In this document: positions 9,001-12,000 of the stretch, one piece after another | Layout of the letters: each line of letters begins with the position of its first letter | Position numbering within the stretch: position 1 is the first letter of the stretch | DNA from: a virus | Taxonomy: Duplodnaviria; Caudoviricetes | IMG/VR virus record: IMGVR_UViG_3300031825_000016 | Coordinates: 1-51,955 of that record | Strand: one strand, 5' to 3' | DNA length: 51,955 nucleotides | Position numbers: made by a program

Positions 9001-12000
9001 AGGCGTTAGGGATGATGGGATATTTGGGCCTGTAACTGATGGCGCAGTAAGACGTTGGCAGGATGCCCACGGACTTATTCCCGATGGTCAAGTGGGCCCA
9101 TTAACTTGGGCAAAAATGTTTTAATTAAGAAAGGTGGAAAAACAAATGGAACTCAAACACGATCTATTAACCAGTAAATACACAAAGGTTTACCATGAAC
9201 CTCCCGAAGAAATGAATTACAACGCTCCGCACTGCTTCTCTGTTTGCCGGGTTGAAGGTGACGAAAACCTTGCAGAGATCCATTTTCAAGAAGGTCCAAT
9301 AAAAGAATGTGGCGTGAATGGCGTCTGCAACGAGGACCTAATTGCAATGGTTATTACCCGCCTGGAGCATTTCCAAAAATCCCAGTTTTCCTGCCGAGAG
9401 AATGCCTTGGCAATTACCAAACTCGAAGAGGCGATGCTCTGGCTTCGCAAGCGTACCATGGGTCGTGAGAATCGCGGAGTCGAAGGAACTCATATTAAGT
9501 AAAGGAGAGTGATACCATGTTAAACCGACTCAAAAACCCCGTTTTCCTGGCTGCGGCTATAGCCTTTCTTTATCAGTTCGCCAACTTCATTGCGAACCGT
9601 TACCTTGGGGTTGTGATTGATCCCAAGACTTGGCAGGAGTTTTTCAACCTGGTATTCTACATCATCATTGGTGCAGGGATTTATTCCAGCTACCAGTCTA
9701 ATTCCCCAACCTCTGCTGTTCCACCCGTAGTTCAACCGTTGATACCGCAGACCCCTAATATTAGTCCAACTACTCCATTTATTCCAGCGCATGGGCATGG
9801 GCCAGATTCGGCAGGGAGTCCAGCATTTGCTCGGCCTGAAGGATGACGGTTTATTTGGCCCGGTTACCTGGGGGACTGTCATGCGGTTCCAAGCTGAGAA
9901 TGGCCTTGCCTCTGATGGGGTTGTGGGTCCAAATACGTGGGCGAGGTTGCTAGGCTAAATTCCCAAGCGCTTGGGAATTTGAAGGAAGGAGTGGAGATCC
10001 TTGAAAACCAGATTCATAAAAGCGAGTTGGCACTCAAATCCGCATACAACGATATTGGGGCGAAGGATGCCAAGGCTACAGCGGCAATCACGAAGCTGAG
10101 AACGTATTCCGTTTTCCGACTATGATTGACATGAAAGATGCCAGTGCCAAGATGGACGAGCTTTACAAAGACCCAGAGAGTTGGCCGACTCACTGTAAGT
10201 ATTGCGGGGCTCCGGTAGCGGAAGATGATGCTAGAACATCCGCGGGTACTCTCCCAATCTTCGATAACGGTTGCGACCAGCTAGAGCCGGGGGATATGTA
10301 TTTTGCCCAAATGCACGAACCAGACGAGCCATGTTACTTCGCTGGCTGGGAGAATTGTGACGGTAAGCATCTTCACGTAGTTCTGCCTAACGGCGATCGC
10401 TGGGATGTCGATAGCAGGGCAAGTAACTGCACTATGCCAGAGGATAAGACCCACCGTTGCTGGGTTAGACACGGTGAGCCGCCAAATGTCCATGTAGACA
10501 AAAACGGAAACACTTGTCAGGCCGGTGCAGGATCCATTCTGTCGGGAGATTACCACGGATTCCTACACAATGGCGAATTAACGAGCTGTTAAAGGAGTGT
10601 TTATTTATGCCACAAGACTTTTTTACTTTAGGATCCCTGGCCACGTTCGCCGGGTTGGTGCTGGCGGTGTACCTTATCGTGCTGTTTAGCAAGTCCTTCC
10701 TTAAATACCTGGTGAGTCTGGTTAGTAAGACAATCTTAGACGGGGATCTCGGGGATTTCGTGATCCAGCTCTACGCCGCTGTAGTGGCCCTGCTGATAAT
10801 GCTGCTTGTTGTGCAGGTGCAGGGCGTAGGGTTGGCTTTAATTAACGCCGTGCTGGTGGCTTTGGCTGCTACAGGGCTGCACGAGACTATTAAACGACCT
10901 ATTGTAGCAGGGCAGAAGGCAAGTCTAGTAGACAGTGCTGCTGAGATTGCTACATCTAACGCATCTACCGTACCGACCTCCACAGAGACCGCTTCGCCGC
11001 CCGCGACTCCAGCGCAGACAAATCAATAGGCAACTGTATTAACCATGGCCTCTCCTTCGGGGGAGGCTTTTTTCTTTTGTCAAAGAACAGGTATATGTAA
11101 AGGGGAGATGTACGACTCCCTCGGTGTGGGATCCCGCGACTCCCAGGCTTGTCCCAGGAGTTTCGGCCTGCTCCCATCAGGCCATCGTCAGGCGGGGTTT
11201 ATTACTCGTGCCAACCTTTTTTGCTTCCTGTTCTTCTACATAATTCATTTTCGTACCATTCCAACGGATAGCCGCCACGAGGGGCACATCCATTTTTATA
11301 TGTCCATATGGCACAACGTAAATCGTCATTGGTCCAATTCTCAAACATACCTCTCGTTCCTTTCATCCTTTACACCGGGATTAGCCGCCCGGCTCGGCTT
11401 TGCGCTTATTCCGCAGTGTATGCTTGCCACTTCTTAGTAACTCTGCACTCAAGAATGTATCTACACTTTCCTTCGGAGTCATACACGAAGTACGGATGTT
11501 CTGTTCCAACACCTTTTAGGCTTTCCTTGATACTGTTCTTGTAGCGTTTGCCTTCTTCCAGGGCCTTGATGGCAGCGTCTACGTTCCCGGTTTTACGGGC
11601 TTCTGCTACCTGTCTTCCTCGTTCTTTTGCCCAGCGTTTCACGCTGATAAAGTAATCTGGATTAAGTCCTGTTCGAATACTCCAGCCAGTGGGGACATTT
11701 TTTCTAGTTAGCTTTTTCATGACTTCGGCCTCCCTTTAATCATCCTGTAGTTATAATATACCATGCTTTAAAATGCTTTACAATAGGTAATTTCGGGTAT
11801 TGCAAAATATTTTATAATGCCGTAAAATGTAAAGCGTAGGGAGTGTGATTTTATGGCAGGAAGACCACCTAAAGAAGACAAGAAAATAAGAGAGGCAATT
11901 TACTTTGAGCCAGAGCTATTGGCATGGCTTAAGGAAAATGCCTACAGGCAGAAGTGTACTGTAAGCGTAGTTGTAAATGTGCTAGTAGAAAAGGAGAGAA

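Follow-up and report, generated by a model that had tools for sequence, protein, structure and literature searches.

A type I pseudoknot hammerhead motif at the end of a leftward two-gene unit in a temperate phage, and its lineage in phages and Bacillota

The complete virus record IMGVR_UViG_3300031825_000016 from IMG/VR (Duplodnaviria; Caudoviricetes) comprises 51,955 base pairs (bp) of DNA, and this whole stretch is referred to below as the window. We analysed a hammerhead ribozyme motif on its minus strand (11196-11127), located at the end of a short leftward unit of two open reading frames (ORFs). Upstream of the unit, a consensus scan returned a promoter-like site on the minus strand (TTGTAA, 17 nucleotides (nt), TATATT, with TG; 11783-11755), which is a match only. 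It is followed by minus-strand ORFs of 104 amino acids (aa; 11720-11406) and 54 aa (11366-11202), both taken from the ORF listing. The 104-aa ORF has no Pfam or PHROG family, and a protein 89% identical to its product is encoded in viral contig L002. The stop codon of the 54-aa ORF occupies 11204-11202, and 5 nt separate it from the first helix of the ribozyme. The original prediction had placed the motif immediately after a 48-aa ORF; this is the same frame counted from the ATG at 11348 instead of the ATG at 11366, so the description stands with the 5-nt gap added. Facing the unit on the plus strand are a membrane-like ORF of 171 aa as listed (10514-11029), whose stop lies 108 nt past the predicted cleavage site, and a terminator-like hairpin with T tract of these convergent genes (11047-11078, hairpin 11047-11068; consensus scan). 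Three other ORFs overlapping the motif (11045-11437 on the plus strand; 10965-11177 and 11177-11344 on the minus strand) were treated as spurious, since they traverse terminator or ribozyme sequence and are without support.

Read on the minus strand, 11196-11133 contains the sequence features of a type I hammerhead, with a tail that extends to 11127. The 5' strand of stem I (CCCGC, 11196-11192) pairs with GCGGG at 11137-11133, as judged from the sequence, the fold and a covariance model, and this 3' strand would form the 5' end of the downstream cleavage product. CUGACGA at 11191-11185 supplies the core positions C3, U4, G5, A6, N7, G8 and A9, and was recognised by sequence, descriptor and covariance model. 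An extra U at 11184, read from the sequence, separates A9 from the G10.1-C11.1 pair (11183 with 11165). The 6 bp of stem II (11183-11178 with 11170-11165) are capped by a 7-nt loop II (11177-11171). GAAA at 11164-11161 (sequence, covariance model) provides G12, A13, A14 and A15.1, and the last of these pairs with U16.1 (11139) to close stem III, an 8-bp hairpin with two G.U pairs (11160-11153 with 11147-11140) and a 5-nt loop (11152-11148); stems II and III were both identified from sequence, fold and covariation. With C17 at 11138, the cleavage triplet is GUC (11140-11138), in agreement with N-U-H where H is not G, and the hammerhead consensus predicts cleavage of the minus strand between 11138 and 11137. 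The tail UCCCA (11131-11127) is complementary to UGGGA in loop II (11176-11172), which allows a 5-bp pseudoknot. The anatomy first proposed for this site, namely the core, the three stems, the extra U, the UGGGA/UCCCA pairing and the position of the cut, was thus recovered in full. The minimum-energy fold of 11200-11120 is the hammerhead three-way junction (-32.4 kcal/mol), with a z-score of -1.9 against shuffles that is modest by itself. Together with the searches that follow, these features confirm at the level of sequence that the minus strand genuinely encodes a hammerhead motif, of type I with pseudoknot and of the prophage kind.

The motif is unique in the window. Our own hammerhead descriptor, which specified the core, an insertion of 0-1 nt, stems of at least 4, 3 and 3 bp, and U followed by a base other than G, found one site on both strands of the 51,955 bp and none in 300 dinucleotide-preserving shuffles. 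A covariance model trained on 81 hammerheads from bacterial genomes only, with the window excluded, scored the motif at 70.0 bits (rough E 5.8e-15), and the next match in the window reached 11.2 bits. The published models behaved differently. No hammerhead family of Rfam 15, RF00163 and its clan included, matched the window at gathering score. With the threshold relaxed to E ≤10 over 501 bases, the sole hammerhead alignment was to RAGATH-1-hammerhead (RF03152), with 18.7 bits against a cut-off of 56.3; this register, which uses a CUGAUG that lies within stem II and loop II, was rejected because it has G at position 9 and 2-bp stems and because the stretch is unconserved in relatives. The relatives were missed likewise, with no hammerhead match at gathering score in 17 viral loci or 8 genomic loci, nor in a 2.1-kb stretch of L046 that carries three clear hammerheads. 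Insertion of the U does not explain this failure, since copies without the extra U among the 8 genomic loci were missed too. A search by Infernal with hammerhead models had been suggested as a check of the motif; run with Rfam 15 it gave no match, and we judge this result to be a false negative that reflects the models and not the motif.

No exact copy of the window's core was found in viral contigs, and a degenerate pattern gave at least 121 matches in at least 109 viral contigs, corresponding to 93 unique sequences. A pattern limited to the 5' half, covering one strand of stem I, the core, the U, the ends of stem II and GAAAC, was run against species-representative genomes. This identified at least 143 places, and 118 of the 143 listed extended into a complete hammerhead that has stem III, U-H and the second strand of stem I; the remaining matches were mostly coding sequence of Proteobacteria and Actinomycetota, or lay at contig ends. 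The genomic carriers are mainly Clostridia (Oscillospiraceae, Christensenellales and others), Paenibacillus, Cohnella and Desulfosporosinus. We assign the window motif to a lineage that is conserved in sequence and has hundreds of copies in phages, prophages and mobile DNA, mostly of Bacillota, and on this assignment the phage holds one copy of it. Other self-cleaving RNAs were seen among the carriers: viral contig L006 has two twister-sister ribozymes (957-1041 and 1253-1336; Rfam 78.8 and 88.3 bits) approximately 2 kb upstream of two hammerheads.

Covariation was measured in both sets of relatives. Among the 93 unique viral sequences, 346 alignment cells were changed on both sides of a pair, compared with 134 ± 9 after shuffling (0 of 500 shuffles reached this value) and 70-97 in slid controls, and 86.1% of cells were paired against 71.6% in shuffled sets. 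The 81 genomic sequences, filtered for a stem III of at least 3 bp and a stem I of 5 bp, gave 207 cells against 68 ± 9 (again 0 of 500; slid controls 12-68), with 90.9% paired against 77.8%. In both sets the covariation was located in stems II and III and the pseudoknot. The pseudoknot, which was aligned in two registers, covaried at three of its five columns, with one pair of the genomic set being CG in 32, GC in 14 and UA in 13 sequences; a register-free test gave a modest difference, with 3.89 bp for the tail belonging to the sequence and 3.58 ± 0.04 bp for tails taken from other sequences. Stem I was paired in 99.8-100% of cells and shows no covariation because its sequence hardly varies, although this invariance and some of the pairing are partly forced by search patterns that fixed parts of the stems. 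The A15.1-U16.1 pair was kept in 93 of 93 viral relatives, where the pattern forced it, and in 81 of 81 genomic relatives. At the base after A9, 238 unique type I motifs in the fetched loci had U in 210, no base in 20, G in 6 and A in 2, with the count of U inflated by patterns that required it. The three helices around the core thus appear to be maintained, with compensatory changes in stems II and III. In seven relatives (L002 3580-3608; L015, L082, L107, L196, L264 and L286) stem III consists of a 2-bp stem adjoining the core, a 3-nt GAU bulge, tandem G.A/A.G pairs and a regular helix. This arrangement is kink-turn-like and may resemble Kt-7; stem III of the window itself is a plain helix.

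We surveyed the surroundings of 218 unique hammerheads. An upstream ORF of at least 40 aa ended between -12 and +20 nt from stem I in 195 of these contexts, as in the window. The upstream stop codon was the UGA of the CUGA box in 57 (for example L002 3549-3557), so that coding sequence overlaps stem I and the core there. A ribosome-binding site and start codon followed within 100 nt of the cleavage site in 171 of 218 and within 60 nt in 140, at a median of 45 nt. These counts indicate that the usual position of the ribozyme is between two cistrons of the same strand, tight on the upstream stop. The operon-end position in the window is a minority layout for the lineage. The original prediction had the ribozyme close the leftward transcript where it meets the convergent operon; the layout of the window fits this, with the motif as the last element of the unit, and our consensus scan of 11200 to 10400 found no minus-strand terminator-like site between the motif and the convergent genes, but the arrangement is atypical of the lineage. 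Flanking proteins were mostly without family: among 85 scanned, picked from 150 listed out of about 400 ORFs, 74 had no Pfam family at E 1e-5. The others were Lar, DUF4942 (two), Amidoligase_2, HicB-like (two), DUF3873, YodL, DUF932, a helix-turn-helix (HTH) protein and a Mu-transposase C-terminal domain.

We propose that the hammerhead at the end of the leftward two-ORF unit insulates or processes the transcript, a reading to which we give a probability of roughly 0.55. The sequence analysis establishes the motif, its significance, its covarying family and its layout; transcription of the unit, cleavage in the cell and effects on stability are inferred. The two-ORF unit would be transcribed through the ribozyme as its tail, and the ribozyme would fold into three helices locked by the 5-bp pseudoknot between loop II and the 3' tail and cut itself between C11138 and G11137. 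The coding RNA would be left with a compact ribozyme body and a 2',3'-cyclic phosphate at its 3' end. The downstream part would become a separate RNA with a 5'-hydroxyl, comprising the conserved hairpin module, RNA complementary to the convergent terminator and whatever is read through into the genes on the lysis side. With this downstream RNA separated, the fate of the coding part would be independent of what lies behind it, which would amount to insulation or processing. Because the stop codon is just 5 nt upstream, a ribosome positioned on it would cover stem I and the CUGA box, and folding may wait for termination. The earlier suggestion that the ribozyme forms the 3' end of the leftward transcript and limits antisense to lysis genes or sets mRNA stability is plausible as one of several possibilities, in a layout that is exceptional in the lineage.

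Several points weigh against the proposed insulation or processing. The locus is known here from DNA alone, and the Rfam hammerhead models gave no match in the register of the anatomy set out above even at the relaxed threshold. The 54-aa ORF is an orphan with no relatives in viral contigs or in a large protein collection (29-95 aa) and no Pfam or PHROG family, so that its status as a gene is drawn from its open frame. The window is among 21 of the 218 contexts with no downstream gene within 300 nt, and in the absence of a gene to insulate this arrangement could be a leftover. Cleavage detaches the read-through RNA and the polymerase continues, so that an additional step would be required to limit antisense; nuclease attack on the 5'-hydroxyl end, known from work on glmS, is a candidate. 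Finally, an A inserted after A9 slowed one viroid hammerhead, that of chrysanthemum chlorotic mottle viroid (CChMVd) (PMC1636495).

The phage is taken to be temperate on the strength of its gene content, which includes a tyrosine integrase at 17315-18445, a repressor of the S24/HTH type at 18449-19096 and, at 8354-9124, an Amidase_3 endolysin; no similar DNA was found in the phage record collection. Prophage hammerheads have been described that flank genes of changing identity, often near integrases, that cleave in vitro and in E. coli, and that need their pseudoknots for fast cleavage (PMC3088659). The window shares with these type I ribozymes the core, the three helices, the open stem I and the pseudoknot as tertiary lock, and equally the setting of temperate-phage DNA, with small neighbour genes of changing identity and an integrase within a few kb. 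It appears to differ in having a U between A9 and G10.1 and in standing alone at an operon end. The CChMVd (+) hammerhead has an extra A10 between A9 and G10.1 in an otherwise consensus core and is active (De la Pena and Flores 2001, via PMC1636495), so that it carries an extra nucleotide at the same place as the window, A instead of U; the viroid ribozyme is of type III and has loop-loop contacts, whereas the window motif is of type I with a pseudoknot. Three type II hammerheads were active in cells of Desulfovibrio vulgaris (PMC8782182), and a fast pseudoknot hammerhead has been crystallised (PMC11300833), in which the pseudoknot replaces helix II, differing from the form in the window. Hammerheads of bacteria and phages have been known since 2011 with their purpose still open, and processing of polycistronic RNA into parts of different stability has been suggested for twister and hammerhead ribozymes, with more work needed (PMC6765202); the role proposed for these ribozymes in 3' untranslated regions or polycistronic RNAs is the one proposed here, and is itself unproven. 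By consensus the motif is of the same class as Hammerhead_1 (RF00163) with its clan and RAGATH-1-hammerhead, while scoring below their gathering cut-offs. Synthetic insulators of the RiboJ type place a hammerhead and then a hairpin before a ribosome-binding site, so that the leader of the gene is cut away from its upstream context. The same order of ribozyme and 3' hairpin before a gene is found in relatives such as L130, L143, L167 and L107. Unlike RiboJ, the window element is natural, has extra conserved tracts, and has no Shine-Dalgarno sequence with start of an ORF of at least 40 aa within 300 nt on the minus strand.

A possible, although improbable, alternative is that the ribozyme is an intercistronic element left over after its downstream cassette was lost or swapped; it may still cleave, and its position at the operon end would be purposeless. 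The usual placement of the lineage, with the next start codon close behind, speaks for this, as does evidence that cassettes come and go. We aligned DNA contigs from four runs of two studies to 10700-12100 of the window. Some contig pieces were identical to the window, and pieces from relatives stopped or changed partner at 11196-11199, the 5' edge of the ribozyme. One contig joint (11199 to 11366) omits the 54-aa ORF and another (11400 to 11753) omits the 104-aa ORF, while the short intergenic pieces 11366-11400 and 11753-11831 are common to the relatives' contigs and the ORFs between them are skipped or replaced. L002 shows the same behaviour in its gene order, with a homologue of the 104-aa ORF, a different small ORF in place of the 54-aa ORF, and a homologous hammerhead with compensatory changes in stem II. 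The leftward unit looks like a chain of exchangeable cassettes. Base changes in these contigs keep the fold: the G.U pair at 11145 becomes G-C in two runs, and the tail A at 11127 becomes G. For 168 hammerheads both flanking ORFs were complete; these included 15 clusters of at least 3 nearly identical ribozymes, and in 14 of the 15 the flanking gene families differed; one cluster showed all four combinations of two upstream with two downstream families.

Against a leftover stands the recurrence of the window's layout. The conserved 3' module behind the ribozyme faces a convergent ORF in other loci also: of 12 loci examined, 2 had no such ORF and 2 no pattern match, and in the 8 compared the convergent ORF ended 98-108 nt past the cleavage site in 7, window included, and at 131 nt in the eighth. 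Shared ancestry with the convergent gene was rejected as the cause of the module, since the 8 convergent ORFs are mutually dissimilar at E 1e-3. A near-constant spacing to non-homologous genes looks recurrent and not accidental, and the core, the stems and the pseudoknot of the window are all intact.

We consider it unlikely that the main role of the ribozyme is to create the 5' end of a small non-coding RNA or functional leader, and the 3' module is the evidence for and against this. In one subgroup, which includes the window, the 3' product starts with the self-complementary sequence GCGGG-AW-CCCGC and continues with a CGAG box, a hairpin, and CCUUNANAUA with a U-rich block. The covarying hairpin with its flanking tract is carried by the window (minus strand, within 11074-11120), L002, L022, L043, L073, L107, L130, L143, L167, L174 and others. 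In the window this second hairpin (5 bp, 8-nt loop; minus strand, 11120-11103) follows the CGAG box and precedes the conserved single-stranded tract CCUUNANAUA and a U-rich block of the UGUUCUUUGA type (minus strand, 11103-11074), and an A is present at 11127 in the self-complementary start where relatives have G. Among 23 unique relatives, 7 of 8 stem pairs change on both sides, with 49 such cells against 18.9 ± 3.0 (0 of 500 shuffles reach this). The pairs are often G.U, compatible with the minus strand only, and the loop often contains UGCA or UGCAU. Behind the hairpin, eight positions are invariant in the 23 sequences, unforced by the search. The CCUUNANAUA tract occurred 16 times in 2.44 Mb of fetched loci, directly behind GUC-GCGGG in all 16; 15 copies follow a full hammerhead, and the locus of the sixteenth (L149) begins inside stem II. 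This linkage is biased, because the loci were sampled for hammerheads. The module had no Rfam family match.

These observations speak for such an RNA. On the other side, a small RNA of this kind would have an undefined 3' end, there being no minus-strand terminator-like site in the scan, and the 3' product folds no better than shuffles (z -0.88). In some members the same piece is merely the leader of the next gene, and in the window and others it runs into the back of the convergent terminator. Other identities for the module were tried. The hairpin at 11120-11103 was rejected as an intrinsic terminator, with at most 4 U in any 8-base window starting 0-2 bases after the stem and no listing in the scan. 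A sigma-70 promoter in the conserved tract was rejected on either strand, with hexamers and spacing that did not fit in the window or in relatives inspected by eye, and none was listed in the scan. A tRNA T-arm was dropped because the loop did not fit, and a dif/Xer-like site was dropped because one arm resembles the consensus and the other does not. Contig L107, which carries a hammerhead of the window's subgroup, also has an Rfam RT-14 RNA match (5224-5371, minus strand; 63.1 bits, cut-off 48.1).

The 3' product has a second pairing option. In 75% of 207 unique hammerheads, a CCGC located 6-15 nt downstream is available for pairing with the GCGG of the new 5' end, compared with 33% for shuffled tails and a maximum of 41% in 200 shuffles. 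This pairing excludes or competes with stem I and the pseudoknot, and could be a clamp formed after cleavage or an off-state. It wins in L002 under an energy model without pseudoknots. In the window the clamp (11126-11137) is weakened by A11127, and the active fold is the energy minimum.

It is also rather doubtful, and somewhat more so than a small RNA, that the element is mainly a recombination junction at the DNA level, a homology patch of about 65-125 bp for cassette exchange with RNA activity secondary. The divergence of relatives' contigs exactly at 11196-11199, the retention in L002 of the 104-aa gene and the hammerhead around another ORF, the cluster with all four combinations of flanking families and the almost invariant stem I would all fit. 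Compensatory changes, strand-specific G.U pairs and an intact core in hundreds of copies indicate selection on RNA instead; the invariance of stem I is partly a product of the search patterns, and any conserved sequence could yield mosaic junctions without that being its purpose. It is very improbable that the motif arose by chance or is dead, without folding or cleaving: the silence of the Rfam models, the modest fold z-score and the 4 of 18 consensus hammerheads that were inactive in vitro in the work of Perreault et al. (PMC3088659) are outweighed by the absence of matches in 300 shuffles, the 70 bits from an independent family model and the covarying family. Insulation or processing of the leftward transcript remains our preferred reading.

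Several features elsewhere in the window were recorded. After the endolysin, a 122-aa protein (9134-9502, plus strand) has a strong match to phrog_2428 and falls just below the Pfam cut-off for the Acb2/Tad1 hairpin domain (26.2 against 27 bits); a role as an anti-defence sponge is possible. A 55-aa ORF consisting of PG_binding_1 only (9791-9958, plus strand) and the end of a 109-aa membrane-like ORF overlap in different frames, and a frameshift or split gene may underlie the region 9517-9958. The minus strand encodes at 12120-12698 a DUF4352 protein that has a membrane anchor at its N terminus and weakly matches superinfection-exclusion proteins in PHROG. A Replic_Relax-like gene and an FtsK/SpoIIIE-like gene occupy 13415-15197 (minus strand), which lies between the lysis genes and the integrase. 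As such genes are typical of small conjugative or integrative elements, this region may be a nested or fused mobile element.

Three aspects go beyond what our reading on hammerhead biology and the inserted base brought up, namely the conserved 3' module, the fact that edges of the ribozyme and cassette junctions coincide, and the competing clamp, with no search having been aimed at these three. The locus offers a simple test case, with one ribozyme, one short operon and no downstream gene. The lineage also exposes a gap in cataloguing, as the Rfam 15 models overlook hundreds of clear type I hammerheads in phages and Bacillota and annotation pipelines consequently miss them. A clue to function may come from the hairpin module that follows one subgroup of the ribozymes, and the location of ribozyme edges at cassette junctions ties the old observation that neighbour genes are not constant to genome mosaicism. 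As a tentative and speculative extension, a portable RNA module of about 125 nt, made up of ribozyme, dual-pairing tail, covarying hairpin and CCUUNANAUA, might be a standard boundary of cassettes in temperate phages of Bacillota. If so, its tail would pair with loop II before cleavage and with the newly formed 5' end thereafter. The module would then be a natural counterpart of synthetic ribozyme insulators, making the RNAs of neighbouring cassettes independent while its conserved DNA serves as the site at which they are swapped.

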